From: a virus
Reading direction: 5' to 3' (one strand)
DNA: 64,000 nucleotides
Virus record (IMG/VR): IMGVR_UViG_3300031994_000034
Part shown: positions 4,613-20,806 of the stretch, one piece after another
Layout: every line of letters begins with the position of its first letter
Numbering within the stretch: position 1 is the first letter of the stretch
The notes under the pieces: generated by a model
The model's input: only the letters and a program-made list of their open reading frames with translations
What the model was told of the DNA's origin: nothing
Database searches by the model: none
Made by a program: the position numbers and the translations under genes

Positions 4613-4798
4613 CACCAGCTACAACATTCTGACAGCCGAGAGCATATACGGACGTGTCCGGCAACCGCATGGCGGCGGCCCCAAGTTTACTTGACGTGGG
4701 CGCAGCACGGCGGGGCATCAGGCAGAGCCTGTTATGCCGAGGCCAAAGAAATGTCGAACTGAGCGAAACGATGTTCAACATTTTATACGTATATTATT

Positions 4799-5635
4799 AT
4801 GGCAAAAAAACAACGAACACACCAGCTACGTCACATCGTAGCCGTGTCAAACAACAAAGGCGGAGCCGGCAAGACCAGCACCGTCCTGAACCTCGCATCG
4901 GCCATCAGCCGGCGCATCGAAGGTTACAGAGTCCTCGTCATCGACTGTGACCCGCAGCGCAACCTCTCCTACTTCCTCGGTTGGGACGACCGACGCGAAC
5001 TGGATGGCTCCCCCACCCTCTACACCGCCCTGTGCAACGAACAGCAGGGGCTTCCAGTCTATCGTGCCGACAACGGCCTGTACTACACTCCGGCCTCCGT
5101 CAACCTGAACGGTATCGACGCCATTCTTTCCCTGCGTCCCAATCCCAGCAAAGCACTGAAGGAAATCCTTTCAAGACCCATCGACAACCGTACCGATGGT
5201 ACTGTGCTCAGCGATTCTGTCGCTGAGAGTTTCGACTTCATCTTCATCGACACCCAGCCCGCCATGTCGCGCATGACCTATAACGCCCTCTACGCTGCAG
5301 ACGGCTACATCATCCCCACAGAACTGGAAGAGGCCAGCGTCAAGGGTATGGCCAACATCGCCGTAGCCGCAGGTAAGGTGGGAGCCGACACGGGCAACCT
5401 CACCATCCACGGTATCCTTATTACCAAACTCGACGCCAAGCTGCGCTCCGCCAAACTCTATGAGCCGCAAATCCGCCAGTCGTTCCGCGAAACCTTCCAG
5501 ACGGCCATCCGCCGCTCCAAGGACATCATCGAGAGTCAAGCCCTCCGCGAGGACGTGTTCACCACCTACTCCGGCGGTCGTGCTGCAGAAGACTATACCG
5601 CCCTCGCCACCGAGTATCTGAGAAAGTTCGCTTAA
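4799..5635 (+). CDS. parA: ParA/Soj-family partition ATPase
   Basis: Deviant Walker A box VSNNKGGAGKTS, then DCDPQ and the downstream ParA-like layout. Confidence 0.9.
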   Translation: MAKKQRTHQLRHIVAVSNNKGGAGKTSTVLNLASAISRRIEGYRVLVIDCDPQRNLSYFLGWDDRRELDGSPTLYTALCNEQQGLPVYRADNGLYYTPASVNLNGIDAILSLRPNPSKALKEILSRPIDNRTDGTVLSDSVAESFDFIFIDTQPAMSRMTYNALYAADGYIIPTELEEASVKGMANIAVAAGKVGADTGNLTIHGILITKLDAKLRSAKLYEPQIRQSFRETFQTAIRRSKDIIESQALREDVFTTYSGGRAAEDYTALATEYLRKFA

Positions 5636-5639
5636 ATAA

Positions 5640-6019
5640 TCATTCAAGCATTTACTTATTTAATCACACACTTATTTAATTATTTATGTATTCACTTAGA
5701 TGCTCGTTCACTTATTTGCTCAACTACTCAAACAAGCAGATGTCTGTTTAATCATATAAGCAAAACCATATTTAATTAGTTAAGCAAAATAGCATATAAT
5801 CATATAAGCAGATAAGCAGATAAAGAAATACTCGTAAGGCAGATATGCAAATAAGTAGGTAAGTATATGAGCGGACAATCATATAAGCAGATAAGTATAT
5901 GAGTGGTTAATTACATAAGCAAACAAGTATCTAAGCAAAAAAGAAGATGGCCAAGTTATTAAAAAGAGTACGCGCAAAGAAATCATTTAAGTATCTAATC
6001 ATTTAATCAGATAAGTATT
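5640..6019. repeat. AT-rich centromere-like repeat field (candidate parS)
   Basis: CTTATTT copies in the first half. ATAAGCA/ATAAGTA and AATCATATAAGCA (three copies) in the second half. Related motifs flank the module at about 4565-4605 and 6538-6560. Confidence 0.45.
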
Positions 6020-6541
6020 ATGGTAAAGAAAGACAAATTCAAGCAGATGCAGCAGGGTGGGGGAGTGACAGGCTCCTTCGTCGAGTCCCTGGTGCAGGCC
6101 GCCACCACCACAGCGGCCATTCAGCAAAAGGCCGAACAAGAAGCCGCCGCACAGCAGGGGGCCGGGCATCAGATAACCACGAACAATCCGTCAGGCGAAT
6201 CCGATGCCTCCCCGTCTGAGGTCCCCGTCGAGGGGCGGACCACCCTTACCGTCACGCCCGTGGCCGCCCGACAGCCCGGCGGCGAATGGCAATCCATAGA
6301 GCAGCCCAAATTCATGCGCCTGCCTAATCCGCAAATCCCACTCAACGAGTACAATCTGGTTAGCCACTATTGCTCCAGCCTCCCCAATATGACCCGCCAG
6401 GACTTCGTGGAACTTGCCATCGTCGAAAAACTCCACGCCCTCGGGCGACTCTCCGACGAGGAGTTCACCGCTCGACAAACGGAAATACGCAACCGCCCAC
6501 CACGCGGCCAACGGAAAGGAACTAAGCAAACAAGCAGGTAA
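6020..6541 (+). CDS. hypothetical protein, candidate ParA partner by position
   Basis: 173-aa ORF immediately after the repeat field. The C-terminal segment reads MTRQDFVELAIVEKLHALGRLSDEEF. No ParB motif recognised. Confidence 0.55.
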   Translation: MVKKDKFKQMQQGGGVTGSFVESLVQAATTTAAIQQKAEQEAAAQQGAGHQITTNNPSGESDASPSEVPVEGRTTLTVTPVAARQPGGEWQSIEQPKFMRLPNPQIPLNEYNLVSHYCSSLPNMTRQDFVELAIVEKLHALGRLSDEEFTARQTEIRNRPPRGQRKGTKQTSR

Positions 6542-6580
6542 GCATTTAAGTATCTAATTAAAAACCAGCCTCACAAAATC

Positions 6581-7051
6581 ATGCAACAATTCAGCCACGA
6601 CTACACCAAGGTCAGCGAGGCTATGGAAAGCCTCTATTCTGCCACGCGGCTCATCGCCAACGAATGTTACGATGCAGCCCTTGAACGTATTAACGAAGCC
6701 CGCACCATCCTCAGCGAGTACCTCGCCCAGGACAACATGATTCCCGACAACGACGTTGCCGACGGTTGGGTACGCCACAGCGAAGCCCAGGCCGAACTCG
6801 AGGATCTGCGCAGCAGGGTAGGGGACACCCATCGCAGTGCGCCCGACGGTTCGCGGCCCTCAGTAGAAATGGACAGAAAAGAACAAATCATCAAAGAACA
6901 GATTGACGAAGCATGCGTCATGCTTGATATTCTAACAGAATCGATTAAGAAAAAAGCCACCATAGAACCGAACGAAAAAGCCAGCATTAGAGAACTATAT
7001 TACAAGTGCTGGGGTTATATGACACTGGTTGATTCGTCCGATAAATATTAA
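6581..7051 (+). CDS. hypothetical protein
   Basis: 156-aa ORF on the same strand. No family recognised. Confidence 0.55.
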   Translation: MQQFSHDYTKVSEAMESLYSATRLIANECYDAALERINEARTILSEYLAQDNMIPDNDVADGWVRHSEAQAELEDLRSRVGDTHRSAPDGSRPSVEMDRKEQIIKEQIDEACVMLDILTESIKKKATIEPNEKASIRELYYKCWGYMTLVDSSDKY

Positions 7052-7057
7052 ATCGCT

Positions 7058-7228
7058 ATGACACGCACACTATTTCAAGCGCAAGACATTGCATGCACGA
7101 CCGACTGCGCACGATATCGGGAGGGCAATTGCCCGTTTTTTTGGTCAGACAAGGTAAACTGCCCGCGTATTCGTTTCTACATGCACGGGTACGACGTAAG
7201 CGACAGTGACGAGGACTTAACAGATTAG
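7058..7228 (+). CDS. small Cys-rich protein, paralogue 1
   Basis: Hand-translated 56 aa: MTRTLFQAQDIACTTDCARYREGNCPFFWSDKVNCPRIRFY... Below the ORF-track length cutoff. Confidence 0.45.
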   Translation: MTRTLFQAQDIACTTDCARYREGNCPFFWSDKVNCPRIRFYMHGYDVSDSDEDLTD

Positions 7229-7233
7229 ACGAC

Positions 7234-7368
7234 ATGGACAAGGACTTAATAGAAGCCGTGCAGCGGGCGTGTACGACAGACTGCCTCCAGTACCGCCACA
7301 ATACGTGCCCGTATCGTTGGACTGCAAAAATGAAGTGTCCGAACGTAAAGCGGTACCTTGACAAATGA
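7234..7368 (+). CDS. small Cys-rich protein, paralogue 2
   Basis: Hand-translated 44 aa: MDKDLIEAVQRACTTDCLQYRHNTCPYRWTAKMKCPNVKRY... Shares the ACTTDC..YR...CP....K..CP..(K/R)RY pattern with 7058..7228. Confidence 0.45.
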   Translation: MDKDLIEAVQRACTTDCLQYRHNTCPYRWTAKMKCPNVKRYLDK

Positions 7369-7429
7369 TAACCAACTGCGACTCAAAGAAATCATCGACA
7401 AATTCAGTAACCATTAAAACCAAAGAATT

Positions 7430-8389
7430 ATGAAACTGAACATCATCCAACTCGCAAAAGTAGCAAAATGCACCGCCCTGTTATTGTTGGCAGGTGCCGT
7501 ATGGTCCTGCAGCAGCAAGGACGAGGTGGAGGAAATGCTCTCCACAGAGACTACACCCGTCACCTTCCAGGTGGACGCACAGACGACCCCCATCTTCTTC
7601 GACTTCACCGAAGGCTGGCGCTACATCGGCTCCGACACGGTGAAAAGCGCCAGTTACAAGGCATCTGCCATAACACTCGATCTCCGTCAAGGCAAGCACA
7701 ATATTGTTGCCGTGAAAGGCATCGAAACAAGCAACGACGTTCAAAAAACGGGTGTCCACTTTGACCCGAGCAATCGCACATTCTATCTGCAATCCGAGTA
7801 CGATGCACACGGGCTCGAAGCTGAGACTGCAATGCTTGGTGTTCCCTCCGCCGATGTCTGTTATTGGCGCCGTCAGCTCGAAGTGTCGCCATATCTTCTG
7901 CCCGAACAGAAGCCGGAGTACACGCCTGTCACAGCTAAGCTTTACATCGGTCCTCAATCAGTAGTGCCTGCCGAAATACAAAAGGATATGCGTGTCGTCG
8001 GTACTTACATAAAGACAGAAGTCAAAGAAGTGCCCGTCGTCGAGCAAGTGGGCCTGGATAACAATAGCTATAAACTGCGCAAAACTCCGCATGAGATTTA
8101 CGCTGTATTGAGCGGAACGGAGAGCAGCGGCTTATCGTACTCTACCAATTGTCCGTACATCACACTTTGTCCGGAAGGAGGATTGCATGACATCAGCCTC
8201 ACGATCCGCGTGTCGGCAGAGGTAACGATGAGCGACGGCTTTTTCCAACACCCTTACCGTCGGGACTACACGGTGCGTCTTCCAAAATTCTCGCTGCAGC
8301 GCGGTTATGTAACACGCTTGAGGGGCGCAACACTCTACTCTGAAAAACCAGAAGACTGGACCGTAGAGATGGCGCCTTACGAACAGTGA
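7430..8389 (+). CDS. lipoprotein
   Basis: N-terminal signal sequence ending in the lipobox-like AGAVWSC. 319 aa. Confidence 0.7.
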   Translation: MKLNIIQLAKVAKCTALLLLAGAVWSCSSKDEVEEMLSTETTPVTFQVDAQTTPIFFDFTEGWRYIGSDTVKSASYKASAITLDLRQGKHNIVAVKGIETSNDVQKTGVHFDPSNRTFYLQSEYDAHGLEAETAMLGVPSADVCYWRRQLEVSPYLLPEQKPEYTPVTAKLYIGPQSVVPAEIQKDMRVVGTYIKTEVKEVPVVEQVGLDNNSYKLRKTPHEIYAVLSGTESSGLSYSTNCPYITLCPEGGLHDISLTIRVSAEVTMSDGFFQHPYRRDYTVRLPKFSLQRGYVTRLRGATLYSEKPEDWTVEMAPYEQ

Positions 8390-8486
8390 AATACTCACCC
8401 TTTAACTCCACGCCGCCAGCCAGCCACCGCGCCGACTGGCGGTTTCTTTTGCCCATCATTCCGCTCATATCCTCGAAATGGCTCGC

Positions 8487-9190
8487 CTCCCGTTAGGACA
8501 AACCTCCATTCGCGTCTGCGAAACGCGCGTGCGTAACGCATCTACAATGAACTCCCGTTAGGACAAACCTTTCTTCTCCCAAGCGTAACGCGCTTAATAT
8601 CAGCCATTCATTGCAAGGTTTGTCCTAACGGGAACCCGCCGTCACACCTCTCCAGTCCGACCTTCCAATATCATCCCGCCCCGGTTCACTCAAAAAACTC
8701 CCATCAGAACAAACCTCTCCAGGTAGAAACTTATAACGTCTTAAAAATCAATAATTAAAATGAAAAAGAAAGAAAACTCCTCGATTCGAGATAAGTATTT
8801 TTTTGTATATTTAAGAATACGATATAGTATATAGACGCGGCGCAGTGGTTGTAAATCAGCTACTTGCGTCAAAAAAAGTTTGTCCTGCCTGGAACTTTTA
8901 TCCGCAAAAGTTTGTCCTGATGGGAACCGAGTTTTGCCCTGCCTGGAATCGTGCTTTGTCTCAGTGGGAGCACAGGTTTGTCCTATCTGGAGGTTTTATT
9001 CATGAGGTTTGTCCTGATGGGAGCCGGCTTTTGTCCTGTCGGGAGGTTTTGTCCCAACGGGAGCACCACCATGCGGTTTGTCCTTTTAGGAAAAGACTTT
9101 TTGTCTTTTCCGGAAATGTAGGTTTATCTTCTTCGGAAACGCACGTTTATCCTTTTCTGAAACCGAAGTTTGTCCTTTTCGGAAGCGGCA
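8487..9190. repeat. iteron array with AT-rich spacer (candidate replication origin)
   Basis: Four copies of GGTTTGTCCTnnnGGGA(G/A)C-type repeats at 8487-8716 (three inverted, one direct). AT-rich block at 8720-8830. Thirteen direct copies at 8877-9185 spaced about 22-23 bp. Confidence 0.75.
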
Positions 9191-9291
9191 AAACATAACT
9201 CTTTGACCAACAAATCAAACGAATTTGAATAAAAAAGTGCTTAAAAATATAATTTTCTCCCTTTTCGTTTGGAGGTTTATTTATTTATTTA

Positions 9292-9299
9292 TACCTTTG
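9292..9299 (+). promoter_or_regulatory. -7 box TACCTTTG
   Basis: Exact TACCTTTG followed by CCCGCAGCTACAAC, 32 nt upstream of the ATG at 9331. Confidence 0.55.
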
Positions 9300-9330
9300 C
9301 CCGCAGCTACAACTCATTTTTATACTCATC

Positions 9331-10845
9331 ATGGGAAGAAAAAAGAAAGAGAAGAGTATCACCGTAGGTATCTCCGACCTCATCTACCAGCCGCACAAGA
9401 TGTCGCGTCTGCCGGCGCTCGACAGTCGCGTGGCCTCGCGCACCATCCTTGCCATCCTGCAACGTCTGCAGGGACTCTTCGCCCTGGCCCGTGCTCAGGA
9501 ACGCGACCCGCAGCTTTATCTGAAGTTCGAGACCGACCAGTTCGAGGTGAAGAAGTCGGCCACCAGCAGCTTCGAGCGTGGCGACGTGTTGTTTAACCTC
9601 TCCCTCTCCGACATCGCCGAGCCCAACCACTACCCGGAGGTCCGTGCCGCTCTGAAGGGACTGGAGCACGTCAAGGTACTCGTGCCTGTCAAGGAGGAAC
9701 CGGGCAAATACCGCACCTCCTCGCTCATGGACATCAAGGGAGAATACGATGCCGACGGCAATCTCATCGGTACCAACTTCTCCGTTATCGTACCCCGCAT
9801 CACCGCCGAGAACATCCTCGACATCAACCTCCTTGGTGGGTTTAGCAGATTCTTACTTTTCACCGCTTCACAGTTCCGCAGCGACTACGGCTACACGCTC
9901 TACATCCGCCTCTCCGACGAATGGCGCCGCTATGGCGACGTCTTCGAGATAGGCTACGAGGATCTGCGTCAGAACATGGGCTTCGTCCTGGAGAAAGAGG
10001 AATACAAGGACAAGGACGGAAAGGTTAAGGAGCGCATCATCGACCACACCAAGAAGCACGCCTCCTGGTCGCTCTTCTGCCGCTACGTCCTCAACCAGGC
10101 ACAGGAGGAACTGCAGATGATGGCCGATCGCCAGCCGCCCGTCACCGACTTCACCTTCTCCTACGAAGGCCTGCTCAACGGTCAGCCTTTGCCTAAGTAC
10201 AAGCGGCCCGACGCCATCCGCTTCACCATCCACCCCACCGCCGTAGGTCGCAAGTTGGCTGCCGATACGGCCTTCTCTGCCCAGAGCATTCAGGCTCGTC
10301 GCATGATGACTGACATCTTCGGTCTCACTGAAGGCCAGGCTCGCACCTTTATGCGCCGCGTCACCCCCGACAATGTGGGCGACCTCCTGCGTGTGATGCA
10401 GCAACTCCAGTCTGACCTCGATGCCGGACGCCGCAAGGCCAACAACCGCACCGCCGTTGCAGTCGATGAGATAAAGAAGTTCCTCAATAAGCAAAAAGAG
10501 GATGCCATCATAGAAGCCGAGGAGGTACCGACTACTCAGTGTAATCCGACTATTCCTCCGGCTACTCAGAGTGTAGAATCCGAGACCGTCGCCTCTCCCG
10601 ACTCCCGCTGGCAGCAGTTCATCGACCAGGTGCTCGCCGACTGCCCCACCGACAACGATCGCGCCATGCTCGGCCCTTTCCTCCGCGAAAGAATCTGTCA
10701 GGCCGTCTTTGCCGACGACACCCTCGCCCTCACCGTCGGCACCCAAGCCTCCTACGACTGGTTCCGTGACTCCTACGGCTCCTTCTTTGCCAAGGAAAGA
10801 GAAAAGCACCTGCCCGGCATTGAGATAAAATTTTTCCTCGACTAA
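9331..10845 (+). CDS. putative iteron-binding replication initiator
   Basis: 504-aa ORF directly downstream of the iteron array. The N-terminal ISDLIYQPHKMSRLPALDSRVASRTILAIL resembles Rep_3-type initiators. The call is mainly positional. Confidence 0.5.
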   Translation: MGRKKKEKSITVGISDLIYQPHKMSRLPALDSRVASRTILAILQRLQGLFALARAQERDPQLYLKFETDQFEVKKSATSSFERGDVLFNLSLSDIAEPNHYPEVRAALKGLEHVKVLVPVKEEPGKYRTSSLMDIKGEYDADGNLIGTNFSVIVPRITAENILDINLLGGFSRFLLFTASQFRSDYGYTLYIRLSDEWRRYGDVFEIGYEDLRQNMGFVLEKEEYKDKDGKVKERIIDHTKKHASWSLFCRYVLNQAQEELQMMADRQPPVTDFTFSYEGLLNGQPLPKYKRPDAIRFTIHPTAVGRKLAADTAFSAQSIQARRMMTDIFGLTEGQARTFMRRVTPDNVGDLLRVMQQLQSDLDAGRRKANNRTAVAVDEIKKFLNKQKEDAIIEAEEVPTTQCNPTIPPATQSVESETVASPDSRWQQFIDQVLADCPTDNDRAMLGPFLRERICQAVFADDTLALTVGTQASYDWFRDSYGSFFAKEREKHLPGIEIKFFLD

Positions 10846-11195: not shown

Positions 11196-11807
11196 TCACT
11201 CTCCACTCTTAACTCTCTTCTCCCTCCTCTGCCATTCCCTCCTGATGGCATCCACATGGTAGCTTGGTGTCTTCGTTTCCTCGCAGAACGCCTCCACCAT
11301 CTCCTTGGCCGGGTACCTGCGTCCGCCCTGTTCCTCCGCATATTTCTGGTCGAAGTCCGCCACTGCTGTCCAGAACGTCTTGCGCACGATGCCCTGCAGC
11401 TTCGTCGCCTGCTGTCTGCCGAAGCTCACGTCCCACGTCCACGGCCTTACTACGCCGAGCCGCGTCAGGCACATCTTCGGGCACTCGATGGGTACGAACA
11501 GCGCCAGCTCATCGCGTGTCACGCCGTACAGCTCCGCTGTGGCCTCGGCATCCAGTGTCATCCCGGCCTCGATGCAGTTCCGGCGTGTCACGCTCATGCT
11601 GCCCTTCACCTTCACCGGCTCCATCGTGTCCTCCGCAGCCTGCATCCTGAAGGTTGCCTTGGCTCCCGGCAGGTGCTGCAGGCTCACCACCCGCCGCCCG
11701 TGCGCCGTCACCTCGCCGCCCAGCTCCCGCTCCAGCCAGCCCTGCATATAGTCCGTCACCCTCAGCCACGCCATCGCCGGCTGTCCTCCCTTGCTGTTGT
11801 TAGCCAT
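11196..11807 (-). CDS. hypothetical protein
   Basis: ORF 11196..11861. The ATG at 11807 (MANNSKGGQP...) lies downstream of the minus-strand -7 box. Confidence 0.6.
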   Translation of the reverse strand: MANNSKGGQPAMAWLRVTDYMQGWLERELGGEVTAHGRRVVSLQHLPGAKATFRMQAAEDTMEPVKVKGSMSVTRRNCIEAGMTLDAEATAELYGVTRDELALFVPIECPKMCLTRLGVVRPWTWDVSFGRQQATKLQGIVRKTFWTAVADFDQKYAEEQGGRRYPAKEMVEAFCEETKTPSYHVDAIRREWQRREKRVKSGE

Positions 11808-11840: not shown

Positions 11841-11872
11841 CAACTTTTTTCTGAGCTTCAATCACCCATCGA

Positions 11873-12068
11873 AAATTATTAGAAAACGCCCCAAATTATT
11901 AGGATTGCCCCATTTCTAATAATTTGTCTAATAAAATATCAATCAACGACTTACGCCAATTTTTGCCATTTTCAATTATTAGAAAAGAATATTTTGTAAT
12001 AGATTGGCACACAAAAAGATACATCACGTTTTGAGGCAAATTATTAGAAAATGCCCAAATTTTAGGTA
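11873..12068. promoter_or_regulatory. operator-like AAATTATTAGAA repeats
   Basis: The 12-mer (or a near copy) occurs at about 11873, 11973 and 12037 in forward orientation and at about 11915 inverted. Two copies extend as AAATTATTAGAAAAyGCCCnAAATT. Confidence 0.35.
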
Positions 12069-12444
12069 AACTATAAAAAACATAAAAAACTGCAGACACA
12101 ATCTTATTACTTCACAATCCTCATCACGTCGCGCAAGAGCTCCCCGTACTCCTCAATTAGTAAAAAGACATTTTCAAATAAAAGGAAAATGTTGATATAT
12201 AAATAGTTATATATATAGTATAAATAATTCTTTAATATTTTTACTATACTTTATAAATCAAAAAAACCTCGAATAATTAAAATTCTACAATATAAATAAC
12301 ACAAAATCAGCGATTTGTGCCGTATTTGCCGACTTAATATCTCCCGAATATCCTGATATTTTTGCGGCGCTTTTTGGGCCGCTGCGTGTAATAAGTGTTT
12401 AATCTCTTGCGCGTTATGCTGAAAACCCGTACCTTTGCATCGCA

Positions 12445-12597
12445 AACACAAACTGAATAAACCAGAGGTATCCGACCAAAGAACCACCGACCGTGAGGTA
12501 CGTTTCATGTTGTAATTCATAAAAGACGACGGATTTCACCACTTCATCCGTCAGCCGTCGCGCCGATGTTGTAGCTTTCTTTGGCGCGGCGGCTTTC
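12445..12597 (+). ncRNA. candidate small RNA
   Basis: TACCTTTG at 12430-12437, no ORF, then two hairpins (GACGGAT..ATCCGTC and GCCGTCGCGCC..GGCGCGGCGGC) followed by TTTCTC. Confidence 0.25.
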
Positions 12598-12795
12598 TCA
12601 ATTCATAGTTCATAGTTCATAGTTCATAGTTCACTTTTCTCAATTCATAGTTCATAGTTCATAGTTCATAGTTCACTTTTCTCAATTCATAGTCCATAGT
12701 TCATAATTCATAGTCCATAATTCATAGTCCATAGTTCATTTCAGTTCACTTTTCTCAATTCATAGTTCATAGTTCATAGTCCATAGTTCCGCTCG
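12596..12795 (+). repeat. largest heptamer array (AGTTCAT/AATTCAT)n with higher-order TTTTCTCAATTCATAG units
   Basis: About 200 bp of 7-nt units punctuated four times by CACTTTTCTCAATTCATAG. Confidence 0.9.
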
Positions 12796-12906
12796 CTCGG
12801 TTTTCTGATTACTCTGATTACTCCGAGTATTTCGAGTATTCGGCCCGACCTTCCCCTGTGCGCCAGCCCCATTTTTCACTTTTCACTCTTCACTTTTCAC
12901 TTTTCC
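12796..12906 (+). repeat. composite cassette: 9-mer block plus GC segment plus (TTTTCAC)n
   Basis: CTCGGTTTTCTGATTACTCTGATTACTCCGAGTATT..CGGCCCGACCTTCCCC..TGCGCCAGC is near-identical to 2256-2320. It is followed by TTTTCAC x5. Confidence 0.85.
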
Positions 12907-12969
12907 ATTCCTCCCTTGACTCCGCAGCTCATTATACCGATATTACCACCAAAACAAACCCATACCACT

Positions 12970-13590
12970 ATGTACGAAGAATACCAACTCCATTCAGACC
13001 CGGCATCGCCCTTCTATCACCAGTGGCCACAGGCTCCTGCGCCGTCCGACGGTCCCGACTCGGACCGAATCGGCTGCATCGCCAGCATCATCTCGTGGAC
13101 CATCGCCTTTGTCATCTTGTTCATCCTCTGCGCACTCTCCTCCTGCCGCTCCACGCGCACCGTCGTCGTCGAAGCGCGCGACAGCACCTCGACCCACGTC
13201 CATACCAACACCGTCTTCGTGCCCGACACCATCCTCGTGCCCCTGCCGCCCGAGCGCGTCGTAGTCGTGGCCCCCGACACGGTGTCCGACCTCCGCACCT
13301 CCGTGGCCGAGAGCCATGCCGCCATACGCGGTGGGCTCCTCCACCACGAGCTGCGCAACCTCGACGCGCCCCTGCCCGTGCCGGTGCAGACTAAGGTCAT
13401 CACGCGCGACAGTATCGTCTATCTCGAGCGTGAGGTGCCAGTGCCATACGCCGTCGAAGTCGAAGTGCCGGCGCCCCTCACCTGGTGGCAGCACCTCCGC
13501 CTCTGGCTCGGCAACATCCTCCTCATCGCCCTCGCCCTCGCCGCCGGCTACGGAGCCTTCCGCCTTTGGCGCAAGTTCCACCATCTCTGA
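12970..13590 (+). CDS. membrane protein (two hydrophobic segments)
   Basis: ATG at 12970 within ORF 12916..13590. Hydrophobic segments IASIISWTIAFVILFILCAL and LGNILLIALALAAGYGAF. Confidence 0.6.
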   Translation: MYEEYQLHSDPASPFYHQWPQAPAPSDGPDSDRIGCIASIISWTIAFVILFILCALSSCRSTRTVVVEARDSTSTHVHTNTVFVPDTILVPLPPERVVVVAPDTVSDLRTSVAESHAAIRGGLLHHELRNLDAPLPVPVQTKVITRDSIVYLEREVPVPYAVEVEVPAPLTWWQHLRLWLGNILLIALALAAGYGAFRLWRKFHHL

Positions 13591-13690
13591 GTACTCGGAA
13601 TACTCGGAGGACTCAGAAAACTCAGAGTACTCGGAAAACTCTGAATACTCGGATTACTCGGAATACTCTGAGTACTCCGATTACTCCGAA
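13589..13690. repeat. 9-nt array (TACTCnGAn)n
   Basis: gagtactcggaatactcggaggactcagaaaactcagagtactcgg... about 11 units, self-complementary through GAGTACTC. Confidence 0.9.
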
Positions 13691-13737: not shown

Positions 13738-14034
13738 CTACACCCTCAGCACGAAGTCGTCCGCCCTGAGGATGCAGCAGTCGCGCAGCCGCCGTGTCTG
13801 GCCGCTGGCCGTGAACTGCACCAGCCGCGAGGGGAACGCCCCCGGCCCATCGACATCCACCGCCACCGTCACGCATTCCTCACCCAGGATGCAGTCGCCG
13901 TTCGATGCTGCCACATACCACACCTTCCACGGTACCCGTTCATCTACCATCGCCCACTTGCCGTTCACCTTTTGCCGCGCCTGCCTGGTGCGCTCCGCCA
14001 CCATTCTCAACTCAGATAATGCTAACTGTTTCAT
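13738..14034 (-). CDS. hypothetical protein
   Basis: ORF 13738..14076, ATG at 14034 (MKQLALSELRM...). Confidence 0.5.
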   Translation of the reverse strand: MKQLALSELRMVAERTRQARQKVNGKWAMVDERVPWKVWYVAASNGDCILGEECVTVAVDVDGPGAFPSRLVQFTASGQTRRLRDCCILRADDFVLRV

Positions 14035-14091
14035 GTTTCTATTTTTTTCTTCTCGCACAGATACCACAGATACCACAGATTTTTTATGGAA

Positions 14092-14577
14092 TCAGCCCAG
14101 CCCTTCGCCGCTGCCGCCCTGCGTGTCGCCGCCCGAGCTGGAGCCGCCCTGAGTCGTGCCGCTATCGGTATCGTCCTGGTTGTCGTCATCGTCAGGGTCG
14201 TCTTCGTCCGTGATGAGCTTCACACTCATCGCCTGGACTATCTCGCGCATCTTCACCGAGGCGCGGAACACCAGTTTCTTCCGCCTGATCTTCACGTCCG
14301 CCGCATCGTCCGCCGCCACCGTCGAGATGCTGGGCGACAGCGTACCGATACCCAGGTCCACCGACCGTCCGTCCTTAATCGCGTCCTCCACGGCCAGCAC
14401 CATGTAGCGCAGCACAATCTCTGCAGTCGCCTGCTGTAGTCCCGTCTCGTGACTGATTTCCTTAGCCAGCCGCTCCAGTGAGAACGGGTCCGCCAACCGG
14501 CGCCGGCCCACGAACTTCACTTCCTTCTCCTTGCCGAAGCCTATCTTCGCCTCGGACTTGACATAGTGCAATGCCAT
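14092..14577 (-). CDS. HU-like DNA-binding protein with acidic/Gly-rich tail
   Basis: The core LAKEISHETGLQQATAEIVLRYMVLAVEDAIKDGRSVDLGIGTL resembles Bacteroidota HU-fold proteins. The C-terminus reads DDPDDDDNQDD..GGSSSGG. Confidence 0.6.
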   Translation of the reverse strand: MALHYVKSEAKIGFGKEKEVKFVGRRRLADPFSLERLAKEISHETGLQQATAEIVLRYMVLAVEDAIKDGRSVDLGIGTLSPSISTVAADDAADVKIRRKKLVFRASVKMREIVQAMSVKLITDEDDPDDDDNQDDTDSGTTQGGSSSGGDTQGGSGEGLG

Positions 14578-14938
14578 AATTTTTCCGTTTTTTAATTATT
14601 AAAATTAGTTAAACCTATGTGACAAATCGGGCCTCGATGCCCAAAATACCGTTTCGCGCCCCTCAGAAGATGTTCATGTTGCTCGCGCAACACTCGAATG
14701 TTACCCCCGGTAATACTCGAATATTGTGCCGACAATACTCACATCTTCCAGCGAGACCATCCAAAAGATACACTTTCAACCGCCGCCCAGCAAGGGCGAA
14801 CTGAAGAGGGACAACTGAGTGTTGTCAATACGGGGTGATAATTTCACACAGATACCACAGATTACACAGATTTTTATGCTTTTCAACATAAAATAGAAAA
14901 TAGTTGGAGAAAGATTTGCACAGATAAAAAATGTATTA

Positions 14939-14946
14939 TATCTTTG
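14939..14946 (+). promoter_or_regulatory. -7 box TATCTTTG
   Basis: 27 nt upstream of the ATG at 14973. Confidence 0.45.
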
Positions 14947-14972
14947 CAACCGAAAACAAGCTACAGCGGATT

Positions 14973-15488
14973 ATGGAAAGAAGAGAGATTAAACTACCTG
15001 TCACAAAATTGAAGGGTTATCTGAATGAGGTGGGCATCCCCGTCAAGGTGCTGGCAGAGATGGCCGACATCAATCCCGTGCATCTGTATAAGTGCTTGGC
15101 CGGGGAGGTGGACGAGCGTAATGGTTCTGTGCGTACTCTGAGCGACGAGAATGTGACACGTCTGCAGGAGGCTTTGCACCAATTTTCGCTCCGGCTAAAG
15201 TACATCTTTATATTTTATAATACCGACAAGGAGGTGCGCAAGCGGAATGGACGCTGCTACTGTCCCGACTGTGTGGAGCAGATTAAGACGCAGTTGGCTC
15301 CGTCGCTGAGCATTCTGCCGTTCATGCACTATGCGTTGGGGTGGAATCGTAGTAAGGTGCGCAATGTGATGGACTTCAAGAACAGCATCGCCTATGGCAA
15401 TATCAGTCGGGACGACGTGGACCGCATCAACGTGACGCTTGCCGAAGTCGCTACCCGGCTTGACATATTAACCCTGATAAAAGACTGA
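14973..15488 (+). CDS. hypothetical protein, possible HTH regulator
   Basis: ATG at 14973 within ORF 14931..15488. Segment VKVLAEMADINPVHLYKCLAG is HTH-like. Confidence 0.55.
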   Translation: MERREIKLPVTKLKGYLNEVGIPVKVLAEMADINPVHLYKCLAGEVDERNGSVRTLSDENVTRLQEALHQFSLRLKYIFIFYNTDKEVRKRNGRCYCPDCVEQIKTQLAPSLSILPFMHYALGWNRSKVRNVMDFKNSIAYGNISRDDVDRINVTLAEVATRLDILTLIKD

Positions 15489-15520
15489 CTTCCTCTCTTT
15501 ATATATATAATAAGGTATAG

Positions 15521-15562
15521 GGCTTCGTTGCATACTTTTTATTGCAACGGAGCCTTTGTTTT
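15521..15562 (+). terminator. intrinsic terminator
   Basis: GGCTTCGTTGCA-loop-TGCAACGGAGCC followed by TTTGTTTT. Confidence 0.65.
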
Positions 15563-15599
15563 ATTTTTGGGGTTGCTATTATGTAAACACCATTCAACG

Positions 15600-16010
15600 C
15601 CTTTTCGGTTCCAGCCAAACCACTCTATACATGAAGCGCACCCCGCGCCTCGCTCGGGGCCTCGGGTGGGTGCCGACCCCTTTTAGGGGTCGCATATATG
15701 CCGACCGACCGACCACCGACCAAGCAGCGCCCCACTCCCCATAGGGAGTGACCACCCACCGATGCCGACCCCCCTCCCTAATGCGCCCACCTAACGCAAG
15801 GCTAAGACAGCCCCAGAGGGGCAGTCTTAAAAGTCCGATTTGGTGGGTCGGTTGTCGGACTGGGCAGCAGGGTCGGCCATCCCCTCCATGAGGGGATGAT
15901 GCCTTATGGGGTCGGCAAGGTAGGACGGATTCGGGGCAACCCCATAGGGGTTGAGGTTAGGCTGGGGGTCGAAAGCTGCCGATGGCGTGGACGCGCGCGA
16001 GGCCCCAACA
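15600..16010. repeat. ORF-free GC-rich block with GCCGACC / GGTCGGC motifs and CCCC-loop-GGGG hairpins
   Basis: TGCCGACC appears three times forward (about 15670, 15699, 15763). GGGTCGG-type copies appear four to five times inverted (about 15845-15970). Hairpins include GACCCCttttaGGGGTC, CTCCCCataGGGAG, CATCCCCtccatgaGGGGATG and CAACCCCataGGGGTTG. Confidence 0.6.
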
Positions 16011-16083
16011 CTTTTTTAACATTCCGAAGAATGTTAAAACAAGTGTTAAAAAATATTTCCTCATGACGCGCGCCTCGGAGTCG

Positions 16084-16091
16084 TAACTTTG
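16084..16091 (+). promoter_or_regulatory. -7 box TAACTTTG
   Basis: Upstream of the ATG at 16146, preceded by an AT-rich hairpin with a GC clamp. Confidence 0.4.
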
Positions 16092-16145
16092 CAGCGGCAA
16101 TCGGCCAAAGACGGCCGACCCACTAACGATAAAATTTTCAATTTT

Positions 16146-16847
16146 ATGGCAACTCAAAATTCCAGCCGTGCCCTTAAGGGCAACACCGAGAGCAAGAACG
16201 CTGCAAAGCAAGTGAACAACCAGCCCGCAACCCGTAGGGTTGTCGAGACCCGAGCCATGTGGGATGTGATTTTCAATCACAGCGTCTCGCTGGTGGTGGC
16301 CTATGCACGTGGCCAGAAGCCGACCGACCCTCGCAAAGGCTTTGCCTTTGAAGCTATTGCGACCCAGCCCCACAGTCGAGCCTATGCACAAAACCTCCTC
16401 AGAGGTTTTGTGACAGGCAAGGCCGGCAAAGTCCTGAAGGACTTTGATGACCTATCCAAGGCCGAAAGCCGTGAGAAGATTGCTGTAGCAATCTTGCTCG
16501 ACTGCAAGTTGGCCAAGGAGGGCACCGAAGGTGCCAAGCGCATCTTGGGCAAGGCCACGCCCCAGCGTGAGAAGGCATTCGCCGAGGCAGTTCTTACAGA
16601 ACTGAGCAAACCTACCGAGCAGCCTACTACCCCCAAGGGGGGTAGGGCGAAGAAGTCCGACGACAAGGCTACTGCCCCTAAGGGCAGTAAGGCCAAGGGC
16701 GAGAGCAAGCCTAAGGCTACCACCCCTAAGGGTGGTAAGGCCAAGAGCGAGAGCAAGCCTAAGGCTACCACCCCTAAGGGTGGTAAGGCCAAGAGCGAGA
16801 AGGCAACTGCCCCTAAAGGGGCAAAGGCTAACGGCAAGGCCAAGTAA
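16146..16847 (+). CDS. Lys/Ala/Pro-rich histone-H1-like protein
   Basis: ATG at 16146 in ORF 16089..16847. C-terminal tail reads TTPKGGRAKKSDDKATAPKGSKAKGESKPKATTPKGGKAKSESKPKATTPKGGKAKSEKATAPKGAKANGKAK. Confidence 0.7.
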   Translation: MATQNSSRALKGNTESKNAAKQVNNQPATRRVVETRAMWDVIFNHSVSLVVAYARGQKPTDPRKGFAFEAIATQPHSRAYAQNLLRGFVTGKAGKVLKDFDDLSKAESREKIAVAILLDCKLAKEGTEGAKRILGKATPQREKAFAEAVLTELSKPTEQPTTPKGGRAKKSDDKATAPKGSKAKGESKPKATTPKGGKAKSESKPKATTPKGGKAKSEKATAPKGAKANGKAK

Positions 16848-16884
16848 GTAAGCCTACGGCTTAACGGCCTACCCAGTACAGCCC

Positions 16885-16911
16885 TCACCCCTTAGGGGTG
16901 GGGGTTTTTTG
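16885..16911 (+). terminator. intrinsic terminator
   Basis: TCACCCC-TTAG-GGGTGGGGG followed by TTTTTT. Confidence 0.65.
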
Positions 16912-16914
16912 TTG

Positions 16915-17800
16915 CCGTCCCGATACGTGGGCGGCCACACACGGCCTGGGCGCATAATGCACGCCCACGAATCGCGATCGCGCCCCCGTTCCTTGGGGGT
17001 AGGGTCTGGGGAGGGGGTCGCTGGGTGGACGCCCATAACGGCTTCGGAACGTGGACGGCCACGGCGCGACGGCATGGGCGTCCACCCGTCGCGACATCGT
17101 GGGCGTCCACATCGTCGCTGGTGGGCTTCCATTGTCGGGCTGGGCTTTGGCCGTCCACCTAAACGCGGAGTGGTCGCCCACATGAGGGGAGTGGCAGCCC
17201 CTAAACGCGAAACGACGTGGACGGCCATAACGCATGAACGTGGACTTCCACCTGACGGGAAAATGGACGGCCAGAGGTGCCTAATGGCCGCCCAACGTGG
17301 ACGGGTGTGGACGTCCATTGTGGAGGGTGGTGGTCGCTTATTGGCCGTCCATTGTGGACGGAAGTGGACGCAGGATGTGGGCAGGGGTGGGCGACCATCG
17401 TGGCCTTATCTGGCCGTCCACATTGGACGCGGGTGGTCGCCCATCGTGGACGAAGCTGGACGCTTATTGGCCGCCCATCGTGGGCGGAGGTGGGCGCAGG
17501 GTGTGGGCTTATTGGCCGCCCATCGTGGGCGGAGGTGGGCGCAGGGTGTGGGCTTATCTGGCCGTCCACATTGGATGCGGGTGGTCGCCCATTATGGACG
17601 CGGGTGGTCGCCCATTATGGACGGGAGTTGGACGGCCACCTATCCGCGTGTTGGACCCCCACCTAAAGGCGCAATGGACGGCCACGCGGGTGAAATGGCC
17701 GCCCACCTATTTGCGTTGGCCGCCCACCTGAAGCGCGCATGGACGCAGATGGACGCGCCTTAATTGGGCGCCCACACACGGTGGGCAAGCCTGCTAATCG
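16915..17800. repeat. dense array of TGG(A/G)CG / CG(T/C)CCA motifs, many as 7-3-7 hairpins
   Basis: Hand count of about 28 forward and about 19 inverted copies. Examples: CCGTCCAttgTGGACGG and CCGCCCAtcgTGGGCGG. A perfect 45-bp tandem duplication lies at 17463-17552. Reading frames are open on both strands with no gene signals. Confidence 0.85.
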
Positions 17801-18989: not shown

Positions 18990-20035
18990 CGGCCTATAGG
19001 CCGCAGGGCTTACCGCAGTCGGTGCGGCTAACCCCAAGGGGTTAGGGTCGGTCCGAATCCGACTTGCCCACAATCCTGCACCCATAACGAGGCGTCTGCC
19101 TCGTTCAGCAGGCCGACGAGTTCCATCGGTTTCCCTTCGGGAAAGAGTGAAACCGAGCCTCCTGCCCCTAAAGGGGAGCCTCTTTAAGAGGTCGAGCCAA
19201 GTGCCCAGGCTGCTCCGACCTAAGGTCGGGTGGTGGATGGCTAAGACCATTGAACCCTATCAGGGTTCACAGTAGCGAAGCTGCTGCCTTGCTCTTTGAA
19301 ATGTTGAACGGCTTGTATCCCTGCGTTCCTTATTGGGCGAGCTTTGTCTGGTAGGGAGTTCCGCCAAGAGTCTATCAAGGTTGGCGGTATTGGGTGAAGT
19401 GTAAACAGGACGATGTGTCTATACGGCACGATACGACGGACGGCCATGCGCGGTAGTGGTGGCATAGGACGAGCCAGTAATGGCTCGGAGTAAAGACCCT
19501 ATCGGCATAAAGCAGCCGGACTAAAATGAGCGTATTGTGGACTGGAGATGCTACTGGACTGCACTTGCGAACTGTCGCAGGGTGGGGTGTCATCGGGAAC
19601 GGTGGCATGAGCGCCATACAAGTACGGACGGTGGGAGAGACCACAGAGTGACTGAGACGCTATACGGCTGGGTAGCGGGTGAACACGAGAGCGGTATGGG
19701 CAGTAGGAGACCTCGGCTATAAGACAGCGGTATGCCAACCTATTGGCGGTAATGAGTAGGCGGCGGGCAGTATTGCAACCCCGCGCTATCAAGTAGGAGC
19801 AATCGGCAATTTTGGACGTTACCAAGAATTGACGGAGGAGGAGTGCGAAATGGCGGAAGTCCGCCTGTCTGCACATAGCCGCACAAGTCTGTGAGGCACG
19901 CGAATCTCAACGCTGGGCACGGGTGTCCGGCGCGACTTGGCTATTGGCAACAAGACAGCGGACGGAATGGGCTATTATGGGCGTGCTATGCATCTGCGTA
20001 GTTTCGCTTGGGGTTCGAGTCCCCACACCCCACAA
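18990..20035 (+). ncRNA. candidate large structured RNA (or highly structured 3' UTR) ending in a tRNA-like T-arm
   Basis: About 1 kb with no credible ORF. It holds a chain of short hairpins with tetraloop-like loops (TTTCCCttcgGGAAA, CCGACCtaaGGTCGG, AACCCCaaGGGGTT, CGAGCCagtaatGGCTCG). It ends with TGGGG-TTCGAGT-CCCCA then CACCCCA. Confidence 0.35.
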
Positions 20036-20137
20036 ACGGAATTTTGAGTCTGCTATGGGCGGTCGTCGTGACGACGTTTGGCTATCTGCACGCCCATATT
20101 GTGCGAACATTATTATCCACACTATAAAGTTAAAACG

Positions 20138-20697: not shown

Positions 20698-20708
20698 ACT
20701 CTATCATG

Positions 20709-20768
20709 TCACACAGATTACACAGATCACACGGATTTCTTTCTGTGTTATCTGTGCTATCTGTGTGA
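20709..20768 (+). repeat. hairpin built from 3x9-nt repeats (CACAGATnn arm / TCTGTGnTA arm)
   Basis: tcacacagattacacagatcacacgga-tttctt-tctgtgttatctgtgctatctgtgtga, starting 12 nt after a stop codon. Confidence 0.85.
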
Positions 20769-20806
20769 ACTTATCCCAAAAACTCAATCATTCAAAATTC
20801 AAAATT

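Follow-up and report, generated by a model that had tools for sequence, protein, structure and literature searches.

Introduction

The TAACTGA direct repeats are the closest described relatives of the features reported here. They are mostly intergenic, run in the forward direction and lie a few nucleotides upstream of start codons that have no ribosome-binding site (RBS) (MacGregor 2015, PMC4679880). Strains differ in them by 7-nt insertions and deletions, they occur in Beggiatoaceae, cyanobacteria and five Bacteroidetes, and a post-transcriptional or translational role has been proposed, S1, Csp or CsrA being named as candidate readers (PMC4679880). Here we describe tandem 7-nt repeats, of units such as AATTCAY and TTTTCAC, in a 64,000-nt stretch of DNA (IMG/VR virus record IMGVR_UViG_3300031994_000034, hereafter the window), the longest array lying at 12596-12795. 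The window arrays are the same kind of feature as the TAACTGA repeats, in another sequence family; the assignment was made because every structural feature of those repeats was found except the unit sequence. A sequence-only reading of this DNA had held that no described system has such an architecture, which was mistaken, that of the TAACTGA repeats being very similar. We tentatively favour the view, to which we give somewhat less than an even chance, that the arrays are slippage-made, structure-free and stop-rich leaders and spacers of accessory-gene cassettes that would serve Shine-Dalgarno (SD)-independent initiation; their transcription and their effect on translation are what we infer.

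Heptanucleotides are the commonest class of long simple sequence repeat (SSR) in prokaryotes, for which polymerase slippage was proposed (Mrazek 2007, as cited in PMC4679880). A Nostoc preprint described heptamer repeats near start codons with regulatory effects and gave no mechanism. In Bacteroidetes, both mRNA structure and an A at position -3 tune initiation, and AUGs are scarcer close to start codons (Baez 2019, PMC6847099). Heptads are also known as protein-binding DNA sites: the omega/ParB precedents, as in pSM19035, require at least four contiguous heptads (PMC9499535), and the available text of a preprint states that the TTTTGAT heptads of the ctxAB promoter of V. cholerae bind regulators (10.1101/2021.05.14.444153).

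Results

Period-7 arrays in the window

The motif (AATTCAY)3, with at most 2 mismatches, was matched 37 times in the window versus 0.01 times expected from 100 dinucleotide-preserving shuffles, and (TTTTCAC)3, with at most 3 mismatches, 8 times versus 0.00 expected. A period scan returned 15 period-7 arrays of 2.3 to about 27 units each, totalling 637 nt, and 0-1 arrays for each of the periods 8, 10, 11 and 12. For every coordinate given by the sequence-only reading, Tandem Repeats Finder and the period scan together placed an array there or no more than a few bases away. The arrays and related stretches are listed below; gene calls, for open reading frames (ORFs) here and throughout, are those of public records that contain the window sequence.

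1417-1473, minus strand: AATTCAY array of 8 units; holds the stop of ORF 1464-2678 and reaches the ATG at 1415
2320-2353, minus strand: AATTCAC array of 4.6 units inside the 404-aa ORF 1464-2678, translated as AIHNLQFTIHNG
2766-2782, minus strand: 2.3 copies of GTGAAAA in gene sense, within the 3' end of ORF 2748-3047; marginal
3920-3951, minus strand: four units of GAAAAGT/GTGAAAA in gene sense (TTTTCAC on the plus strand), ending at ATG 3920
12596-12795, plus strand: super-array of about 27 heptads, 200 nt, in the long leader of gene 12970-13590
12870-12909, plus strand: TTTTCAC/TCTTCAC array of about 5 units in gene sense, ending 61 nt upstream of ATG 12970
23808-23873, plus strand: AATTCAY array of 8 units between ardA (22820-23770) and gene 23884-24933
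24944-24978, plus strand: degenerate AATGCAY/AGTTCAT/AATTCAT array right after the stop of gene 23884-24933, the next ATG being 84 nt on
32111-32168, plus strand: AATTCAY array of about 8 units; holds the stop of ORF 31930-32121 and reaches ATG 32170 (called start 32179)
33638-33708, plus strand: AATTCAY/AATGCAC array of about 10 units, filling the junction of genes 32179-33636 and 33710-34171
34204-34278, plus strand: AATTCAY array interrupted by a 39-nt insert, after a 9-mer half-site (CACAGATAG) and ending at ATG 34279
34686-34718, plus strand: TTTTCAC-type array (TTTTCAC TATTCAC TTTTAAC TTTTCAT), ending 1 nt before ATG 34720
37968-38008, plus strand: three AATTCAC units, then AATTAAC and AATTAAA; holds the stop of ORF 37838-37999, the next ATG being 93 nt on
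38087-38107, plus strand: weak GTGAAAA-like stretch (GCGAAAAGTGAACAATGAAAA) with 3 mismatches, overlapping ATG 38101
51107-51145, plus strand: five AACTCTN units, an unrelated heptamer array inside ORF 50605-51729

Intergenic DNA held 510 of the 637 array nucleotides (80%) versus 21% of the window. The statement that the arrays occupy gene junctions was thus right for most of them, the arrays at 2320-2353 and 2766-2782 being inside called ORFs. AATTCAY matches were on the minus strand at 1417-2352, where the genes are on the minus strand, and on the plus strand at 12600-38000, where the genes are on the plus strand, so that all nine AATTCAY/AGTTCAT arrays had the gene-sense orientation that had been ascribed to the arrays in general. 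It did not extend to the TTTTCAC family, which in the sense strand reads TTTTCAC at 12870 and 34686 and GTGAAAA at 2766, 3921 and 38087; because the 3920-3951 array reads GTGAAAA in sense, this family is used in either orientation. Units were direct in every array, with no mixing of direct and inverted units within one array.

An ATG followed 0-25 nt past the array end in 6 of the 9 AATTCAY arrays, and the start contexts of array-preceded genes in the window had no SD sequence. Three ORFs end inside arrays: 1464-2678 (...VEINS-stop) and 37838-37999 (...FTIHN-stop), as had been noticed from the sequence, and likewise 31930-32121 (...LINS-stop). At least these three arrays are in mRNA, because they contain the stop codon of the upstream ORF.

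The possibilities raised earlier, that the arrays are assembly artefacts or are absent from close relatives, were both checked. Logan contigs from SRR9006654 and SRR9006655 hold identical arrays, so the arrays were reproduced in independent assemblies, and they were present in close relatives and seen again in relatives from at least 6 other samples. Several short contigs (L235, L244-L247) start or break inside arrays, which thus break short-read assemblies, and the unit counts in the longest array are for this reason approximate and may be imprecise.

Sequence and RNA properties

The unit consensus is nnTnCAY, with the variants AATTCAY, AGTYCAT, AATGCAY, AATACAC and TTTTCAC, and AATTCAY arrays in gene sense are nearly free of G. 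Units ending in T give TAA (CATAATT) or TAG (CATAGTT) every 7 nt, and three such units put a stop in all three frames. The three-frame stops described by the sequence-only reading were correct at the sequence level: the arrays at 1417, 12596, 23808, 32111 and 33638 have stops in every frame. The suggested role as a three-frame translational insulator would be compatible with these data and forms part of the reading that we favour. In-array AUGs are few and occur only in AATGCAY units; the upstream ORFs that they open have 4-19 codons (several read MHNS-stop) and are all closed by in-array stops ahead of the main ATG.

Array RNA did not fold: its minimum free energies (MFE) lay between 0 and -7.5 kcal/mol and its z-scores between +0.3 and +1.7. 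The MFE was exactly 0 for the 23808-23873 array (RNA 23800-23905), and 200 of 200 shuffles folded at least as well. In 6 of the 9 AATTCAY arrays a degenerate last unit leads into the start codon, as in ...AATTGACT-ATG, ...AATTTACT-ATG, ...AATTGATT-ATG and ...AATTTAT-ATG. The complement of AATTCAY carries an ATG (ATGAATT) and would give ATG in all frames; only the ATG-free orientation was found (9/9). TTTTCAC/GTGAAAA has no ATG on either strand, and both orientations were found. This pattern, in which a family with an ATG-bearing complement occurs only in sense and an ATG-free family occurs both ways, fits the leader reading.

The 2320-2353 array is of the CAC type, is free of stops and is read through. 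An added 7 nt would, in silico, bring a stop at aa 135, and a loss of 7 nt would give a frameshifted 241-aa product. A repeat with a unit length that is not a multiple of 3, placed within an ORF or between promoter elements as contingency loci require, is found at 2320-2353 only; the others are leader or spacer arrays.

The super-array upstream of gene 12970-13590

The super-array at 12596-12795 consists of four blocks, each with (T)TTTCTC, then AATTCAT, then AGTTCAT/AGTCCAT/AATTCAT units and a final AGTTCAC. It is followed by 9-mers and then by the TTTTCAC array, the whole lying within a 1.16-kb divergent region before gene 12970-13590. The super-array is not adjacent to a start codon and ends 175 nt upstream of ATG 12970. 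A promoter box lies upstream of it:

12429-12437, plus strand: host-type Bacteroidota -7 box (GTACCTTTG), which points into the super-array from about 160 nt upstream

Because this box points at them, the arrays at 12596-12909 are taken to lie within a leader predicted to be transcribed. There were zero ATGs in 12596-12969, and the RNA MFE of the super-array was 0 kcal/mol over 150 nt. Its place and orientation were conserved in relatives from five other samples, and the units per block differed: 5,5,9,5 in the window, 5,8,5,5 in L240-L243 and 2,3,13 in L248, in which the counterpart of 12870-12909 was about one unit shorter.

A minus-strand ORF at 12994-13584 was considered as the gene beside the super-array and was rejected for the plus-strand ORF 12970-13590, because of the codon score (0.18 for the plus-strand ORF versus 0.10), the start context and the gene call in public records.

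The same divergent region, between genes 11196-11807 (minus strand) and 12970-13590 (plus strand), has an AT-rich part with five copies of a TTCTAATAATT box at about 11850-12250. The sequence of these boxes is conserved in L248, and they may be a regulator-binding or origin-type site.

Copy number and turnover in relatives

The contig L236 was the closest mosaic relative of the window, 90-97% identical in shared blocks, with arrays at the same junctions and different contents.

Junction of ArdA and 349-aa genes (23808 array): 8 units in the window; 7 units in L236, with flanks otherwise identical
Junction of 63-aa and 485-aa genes (32111 array): about 8 units in the window; three more in L236
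Junction of 485-aa and 153-aa genes (33638 array): AATTCAY throughout in the window; in L236 the 5' half is identical and the 3' half is AATTTTCT AATTCTCT AATTCTTG
Junction of 153-aa and 133-aa genes (34204 array): split by the 39-nt insert in the window; uninterrupted, 5 units, in L236
34686-34718: TTTTCAC array in the window; none in L236, which has an extra 153-aa gene there; L238 identical to the window

The 24944 array was present in L236 with unit substitutions, and the homology with L236 stops 16 nt downstream of it. In the more distant L238, one AATTCAC stands where the window has three (37968 array), and GAAGAGT/GAAGAAT and AAATTGT heptamers are found in place of AATTCAY at the junction of the 485-aa gene (33638). 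In L003, whose proteins are 46% identical, units of 10-11 nt (AAAATTRTAT) stand in inverted arrangement, and no junction arrays were found in L008, a more distant ArdA/MutS_I relative. A junction-spanning variable-gap pattern had no matches in JGI metagenomes; a second, exact pattern found one relative, L248. The arrays are therefore heritable and positionally stable over short distances, and change fast in unit number and type.

L236 carries genes for IS605-family OrfB/TnpB, HNH and BRCT proteins (15911-17344) at the position of window 37963-38084. This block comes directly after the counterpart of the window ORF whose end lies in the AATTCAC array.

Element and host

The window matches a 177.6-kb ENA metagenome contig (L001) except for one copy of a 45-nt repeat. 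That tandem repeat lies at 17462-17568, within gene 16957-17763, and L001 has one more copy of it than the window; over the 64 kb the two differ otherwise only by a single mismatch and a gap of 1 nt, both in the same stretch (13839-17522). Related contigs of 52 kb and 126 kb are filed as viral in IMG/VR. Megablast of 24-kb stretches against phage and plasmid collections had no matches, nor had a search for related loci with single proteins in genome contigs and viral contigs.

A plasmid-type maintenance module was found at 4799-10845:

4799-5635: ParA
5636-6019: centromere-like 8/16-nt repeats, downstream of parA
8470-9200: about 15 iterons (GTTTGTCCTnnnGGGA) in both orientations, before the 504-aa ORF 9331-10845 (putative rep)

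The 504-aa ORF 9331-10845 had no Pfam match. There were no heptads upstream of parA (4388-4798) or of the putative rep (8390-9330), where other repeats were found. The arrays were also considered as a plasmid centromere or as replication iterons, and this was rejected; separate 8/16-nt repeats follow parA and the GTTTGTCCTnnnGGGA iterons precede the putative rep.

The element has a long same-strand block of small genes, which encode ArdA, two DNA methylases, a reverse transcriptase, a 1169-aa primase-like protein, MazG and a homologue of initiation factor IF-1, and the part of the contig flanking the window encodes an amidase with a PG-binding domain, YopX and a Tad2-like protein. A plasmid module and phage-like genes on one contig suggest a phage-plasmid or a large plasmid. 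The IF-1 homologue (49587-49814; 75 aa; Pfam eIF-1a, 85 bits) is circumstantial as support for a translational role of the arrays. The last 110 nt of its gene and the downstream leader (49714-49823) are duplicated at 50185-50294 with 96% identity, and the two copies bracket gene 49834-50184 like the footprint of a cassette insertion.

GTAYCTTTG, a TAnnTTTG -7 box, was matched 6 times in the window versus 0.59 expected, always in intergenic DNA, and all boxes except that at 11020 point at a neighbouring gene start. Of the start contexts of the 95 genes, 66% had A at -3 and 64% had T at -1; a general SD was absent, and the leaders were A-rich and G-poor from -21 to -3, with 5-13% G at -21 to -14. 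A HU-HIG protein (14092-14577) is encoded in the window, in which two HU-family genes lie near the largest array. The best phage matches were phages of Bacteroidota, and the nearest phage homologues of the DUF4942 methylase were in Flavobacteriia phages. Because of the TAnnTTTG boxes, the SD-less start context with A at -3, the HU-HIG protein and the Bacteroidota phage matches, the host is assigned from sequence to the Bacteroidota, SD-less type.

The Pfam scan of the 95 window proteins (E at most 0.001) gave, in the way of DNA-binding proteins, only one of the Cro/C1 helix-turn-helix type (42387-43007) and one HU-HIG protein. It found no ribbon-helix-helix (RHH), CopG/Arc/MetJ or ToxR-like family and no sigma factor or RNA polymerase gene. 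Rfam at gathering thresholds had no matches in the whole window and at permissive thresholds gave no more than chance-level matches on two long non-coding regions; no tRNA or tmRNA genes were found in the window.

Distribution in public sequences

The pattern (AATTCAY)4 was found at 58 IMG/VR loci and at at least 120 loci in species-representative genomes. The genome matches listed were mostly metagenome-assembled genomes of Bacteroidales, Prevotella and Rikenellaceae, and also included cyanobacteria (Microcystis, Nostocales, Stigonema and Scytonema), Lentisphaerae, Ruminococcus and Treponema. Many cyanobacteria, like the Bacteroidia, ignore SD sequences or use them rarely. Many public arrays adjoin the start codon as CATAATT-ATG. 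Among the matches listed, 194 non-redundant public arrays of at least four AATTCAY units were compared with neighbouring starts, and where an ORF start lay at most 25 nt downstream the array was sense in 51 cases and antisense in 16; arrays also stood singly in chromosomes of many phyla.

In the viral contigs, the composition-matched control (ATCATAY)4 had 28 loci and (TTTTCAC)4 had 18. About 225 loci from the pattern scans (about 180 of them for AATTCAY) held, among the matches listed, 203 further period-7 arrays of other units. Among the 57 of these bystander heptamer arrays next to starts, the sense strand had G<C in 40 and G>C in 15. AATTCAY as a uniquely privileged unit was rejected, the control being about half as frequent and many other heptamer units occurring at the same loci.

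Discussion

Proposed structure-free leaders and what weighs against them

We tentatively read the arrays as leaders because they are unfolded and stop-rich, because 6 of 9 end near an ATG, and because of the SD-less host type, the orientation pattern, the 51:16 bias and the G<C sense strands of most start-adjacent bystander arrays in public sequences, the changes in 7-nt steps and the TAACTGA precedent. Heptanucleotide SSRs generated by slippage would form transcribed leaders and intercistronic spacers of accessory-gene cassettes. Ribosomes that arrive from the cistron upstream, or that started at a stray AUG within the array, would stop inside the array, and the next AUG, in an A(-3)/Y(-2)/U(-1) context, would be offered on a structure-free runway, which may be what SD-blind Bacteroidia ribosomes need to initiate. 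The unit number would drift by replication slippage, apparently without harm, and the recurrence of units at many junctions could make them occasional substrates for recombination.

Several observations weigh against this view. As many as 3 of the 9 AATTCAY arrays lie 84-175 nt before the next ATG, and the super-array, at 200 nt, greatly exceeds the length that a leader requires. Ordinary A-rich leaders serve most genes of the window. From -50 to +20, array genes had a mean MFE of -3.3 kcal/mol and other genes one of -7.4, and 70-mers from inside coding sequence had one of -17.6; the difference between array genes and other genes was not significant (n = 5, p = 0.07). If recombination spread the arrays, their orientations in the window cannot be counted as independent events. 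In the public matches listed, only about a quarter of the arrays of at least four AATTCAY units were sense-upstream of an ORF start within 25 nt, and several chromosomal Bacteroidales arrays lie between divergent -7 boxes, outside predicted transcripts. Because the control heptamer was also common (28 versus 58 viral loci), the AATTCAY unit is not special.

A wider idea, which we regard as unlikely, is that heptamer arrays are a general, modular and slippage-tunable substitute for the SD sequence, a combined ribosome standby and insulating element, in use in SD-poor lineages and above all in their mobile elements. The reader of the 7-nt register might then be an OB-fold protein that binds single strands, for example S1, a cold-shock protein or the IF-1 homologue of the element. 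If true, this would explain why heptanucleotides are the commonest long bacterial repeats and why they cluster before RBS-less starts. To our knowledge, no bacterial heptanucleotide repeat has an established function, and start-codon choice without an SD sequence is only partly understood in Bacteroidia. The element is a natural test set, with many arrays, several unit types, defined positions and graded relatives that differ at the same junctions. If the arrays are inert, the case still shows rapid turnover of junctions in such elements and the breakage of assemblies by repeats.

Alternative explanations

The main rival to the leader reading is that the arrays are neutral microsatellites, products of polymerase slippage in AT-rich spacers with no function of their own, of many unit types where a genome is rich in them, selection removing only those copies that bring an AUG or structure before genes. 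We hold this to be doubtful, though a serious contender. Unit number and order vary freely among relatives of 90-97% identity, orthologous junctions of distant relatives carry other units or no array, viral contigs have about half as many loci of the control heptamer as of AATTCAY, and the 203 further period-7 arrays at about 225 loci (matches listed) have other units; heptanucleotides are, moreover, the commonest long SSR class, with slippage as the proposed cause (Mrazek 2007, again as cited in PMC4679880). Pure neutrality accords less well with the retention of the same junctions and orientation across many samples, including a four-block layout in the window and L240-L243 (three blocks in L248), or with the junction at 33638, which keeps its heptamer character while the unit is replaced. 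The sense orientation of 9/9 window arrays, the 51:16 bias in the public matches listed and the very high density of 15 arrays in 64 kb also speak against it.

Operator or architectural sites at the DNA level are quite unlikely. On the model of omega/ParB on the pSM19035 heptads and of ToxR/H-NS on the ctxAB heptads, a protein with a 7-bp register would coat the double-stranded arrays and co-regulate accessory genes or organise the DNA. Co-evolution with a binder encoded by the element would lead to what is seen, the recurrence of one unit at many junctions of one element and the use of other 'dialects' by relatives; the largest array lies in a divergent control region beside the replication/partition module and two HU-family genes, chromosomal Bacteroidales arrays lie between divergent -7 boxes, and there are precedents with at least four contiguous heptads (PMC9499535) and, in the available text on ctxAB, heptads that bind regulators. 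Nevertheless, no RHH, ToxR-like or other obvious candidate was found among the 95 proteins (Pfam, E at most 0.001), and no arrays precede parA or the putative rep. The repeats are direct only, as opposed to the mixed direct and inverted omega heptads, the unit is loose (positions 1, 2, 4 and 7 vary) with a number free to vary, and strict gene-sense orientation is not demanded of an operator.

It is very unlikely that the arrays are promoters for leaderless mRNAs. Such promoters could be recognised by a sigma factor or RNA polymerase that is non-canonical or specified by the element, or could work in a host outside the Bacteroidota. Alternating AATTCAC/AATTCAT spells TTCACA-N17-CATAAT in every register, the last CATAAT stands 4-5 nt before the ATG at four junctions, a distance that would suit leaderless mRNAs, and the spacing is constant (CATAAT-TGACT-ATG, CATAAT-TTACT-ATG, CATAAT-TGATT-ATG and CACAAT-TTAT-ATG). 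A sigma-70 scan of 20-39 kb gave 40 sites versus 14.8 expected, with the excess in the arrays, which match 10/12 consensus positions, and the sites share the gene-sense orientation. The host type, on the other hand, uses TAnnTTTG: the window's own host-type promoters are of this form, with leaders of 20-40 nt, and Bacteroidetes transcripts are mostly leadered, according to the available part of PMC6847099. AGTTCAT, TTTTCAC and GTGAAAA arrays are off the consensus, the public CATAATT-ATG arrays would place the transcription start past the start codon, upstream ORFs overlap three arrays, one array is translated, and the window has no sigma factor or RNA polymerase gene that we could find.

The sequence-only reading had proposed that the arrays are recombination linkers. 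In analogy to the promoter-early stem-loop (PeSL) cassettes of T4-type phages or to lambdoid boundary sequences, shared arrays would provide homology for the gain, loss and swap of cassettes and would be kept for that reason. We give this only a slim chance. L236 is a mosaic of the window with inserted, deleted and replaced cassettes; five breakpoints touch heptamer arrays (24994, 34690, 34726, 37962 and 38085), one array has its 3' half swapped, an identical 18-nt leader (AATTAAAACTCAATCACT) precedes two different genes, the 110-nt duplication brackets one cassette, and PeSL offer a precedent (PMC2839356). Breakpoints were, however, not enriched at arrays, so that the proposal is weakly supported at best: 5 of 26 lay at most 16 nt from heptamer arrays versus 12% expected from their share of junction space (p = 0.19), and 8 of 26 versus 22% when 9-mer arrays were included (p = 0.21). 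Plain gene boundaries hold most of the breakpoints between the window and L236, and the public matches listed include arrays that are single in their chromosomes in many phyla.

Phase variation, in which gain or loss of a unit would switch, fuse or split ORFs, 7 not being a multiple of 3, is highly improbable as a general account and plausible for the in-ORF array at 2320 only, where a change of one unit either way would truncate or frameshift the product of the 404-aa ORF: three ORFs do end in arrays, so that unit changes alter C-termini, and copy number does differ between relatives, but most arrays are intergenic and affect no reading frame, no variant of the 2320-2353 array was seen among the relatives examined, and the affected genes are not of the surface or restriction type with a known benefit of switching.

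Other repeats, RNAs and leaders in the element

Hairpins of 9-nt repeats also lie at gene junctions, each with three CACAGAnnn units followed by three inverted TCTGTGnnn units. Their RNA had an MFE of -28 to -38 kcal/mol (z of -4.5 to -8), and the stem has no trailing U-tract. L238 and L003 keep the three-plus-three layout with other units (CGCAGAAAT/ATTTCTGCG), and the hairpin arms therefore co-vary. A second 9-mer family is partly intergenic and partly in ORF 3' ends, where it is translated as low-complexity linkers rich in S/T/Q/N; an example is the last 66 codons of ORF 32179-33636.

20698-20806, 21008-21093, 29497-29587 and 30448-30510: full 9-mer hairpins
14053-14082, 14846-14872, 22046-22076, 34175-34196 and 37408-37438: 9-mer half-sites
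1685-1730, 12804-12840, 13592-13690, 31500-31540 and 33439-33572: second 9-mer family (TACTCNGAN and its complement), in either orientation

The stretch 25238-29151 has the gene of a 530-aa reverse transcriptase and then two long GC-rich non-coding sequences rich in inverted repeats, at 26831-27291 and 28381-29151, one on either side of a 362-aa ORF. L003 shares the conserved layout of this block and its non-coding sequences, and in L236 the block 24995-29115 is replaced by two other genes. No Rfam match was found in its non-coding stretches. The block may be a system of a reverse transcriptase and a non-coding RNA.

A 1.1-kb non-coding region at 18990-20137 ends in a tRNA-like T-arm (GGGGTTCGAGTCCCC). 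ARAGORN and Rfam gave nothing significant on it. Its counterparts in L236 (329-1237) and L037 (about 9780-9830) end ...GGTTCGATTCCCC...CTTCTACTATTGAGA and are then directly followed by (AATTCAT)4. This region may encode a large unclassified RNA.

Motifs of two kinds precede genes elsewhere in the window. An SD-like motif, (A)GGAGGA(C/G)T(G/A)A(G/A/C)C(G/A), ends directly at the ATG of five clustered genes, which is unexpected in a host lineage with ribosomes thought to be SD-blind, and a recurrent leader, AAAGCTACAAC(A)-ATG, stands before many genes beyond 44 kb.

55855-55869, 56636-56650, 57843-57857, 58056-58070 and 60164-60178: SD-like motifs, overlapping upstream ORF ends
44205-44216, 51956-51967, 53770-53782, 55129-55140, 60762-60773 and 61806-61818: AAAGCTACAAC(A)-ATG leaders

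The sequence GCTACAAC follows the TAnnTTTG -7 boxes of three clear promoters (4625-4640, 9305-9320 and 38890-38905) and may mark transcript starts or a processing site. At its junctions 1-163, 1352-1492, 8880-9062 and 10218-10348, L003 has long GC-clamped hairpins (GGTCGCTCCGCTC...GAGCGnAGCGACC). The AT-rich arms of these have AAAATTRTAT units on one side and the complements on the other, the 3' arm being TAATTTTG, a TAnnTTTG -7 box. They are reminiscent of the single-strand promoters of plasmid leading regions.

Comparison with described systems

The window arrays share with the TAACTGA repeats tandem 7-nt units with variants interspersed, a mostly intergenic and forward position near RBS-less starts, the overlap of some arrays with an upstream ORF's end, and differences between strains or relatives in 7-nt steps (8 versus 7, +3, and 3 versus 1). 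They differ in their units (AATTCAY, AGTYCAT and TTTTCAC), with several unit families together, in a much higher density (15 in 64 kb), in lying on a plasmid-like or phage-like element rather than a chromosome, and in the company of 9-nt-repeat hairpins.

Heptamers of the STRR type were reportedly described in cyanobacteria by Mazel in 1990. Like the SSRs of 5-11 nt surveyed by Mrazek and the STRR heptamers, the window arrays are abundant, intergenic and variable in copy number, a class that is ascribed to polymerase slippage; those surveys are not known to report a link to start codons or to mobile-element cassettes.

In T4-type phages, the PeSL cassettes are likewise short regulatory modules that recur where small accessory ORFs adjoin one another in hyperplastic regions (PMC2839356, PMC4122927). 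As there, cassettes are inserted, deleted and replaced between close relatives, and hairpins (the 9-mers) and a repeat that looks sigma-70-like are present. PeSL are single promoter and terminator units, whereas the window has tandem heptamers, breakpoints that are not enriched and another host promoter type. The window arrays match the sigma-70 consensus at 10/12 positions, the host uses TAnnTTTG, and the 9-mer hairpins have no U-tract.

The omega/parS sites of pSM19035 and the ctxAB heptads resemble the window arrays in having at least four contiguous 7-bp units, in variable number, upstream of plasmid genes. Omega sites mix direct and inverted heptads (PMC9499535), and the window arrays are direct only. 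The omega and ctxAB arrays lie upstream of the promoters of maintenance or toxin genes and have known binders, whereas no window array precedes par or rep. No RHH or ToxR-like protein of the kind that binds them was found among the 95 window proteins.

The Omega leader of tobacco mosaic virus, with ACAAUUAC repeats and a CAA-rich tract, boosts translation without an SD sequence. It is, like the window arrays, a G-poor, unstructured, repeat-containing 5' leader; as the RNA of a eukaryotic virus, with three copies of an 8-nt unit, it is an analogy only.

Relative to these systems, what is new here is the unit families, their breadth in Bacteroidales and viral contigs, and the density of arrays on a mobile element. 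Also new are the relatives that show unit turnover at fixed junctions and the link to SD-less initiation.

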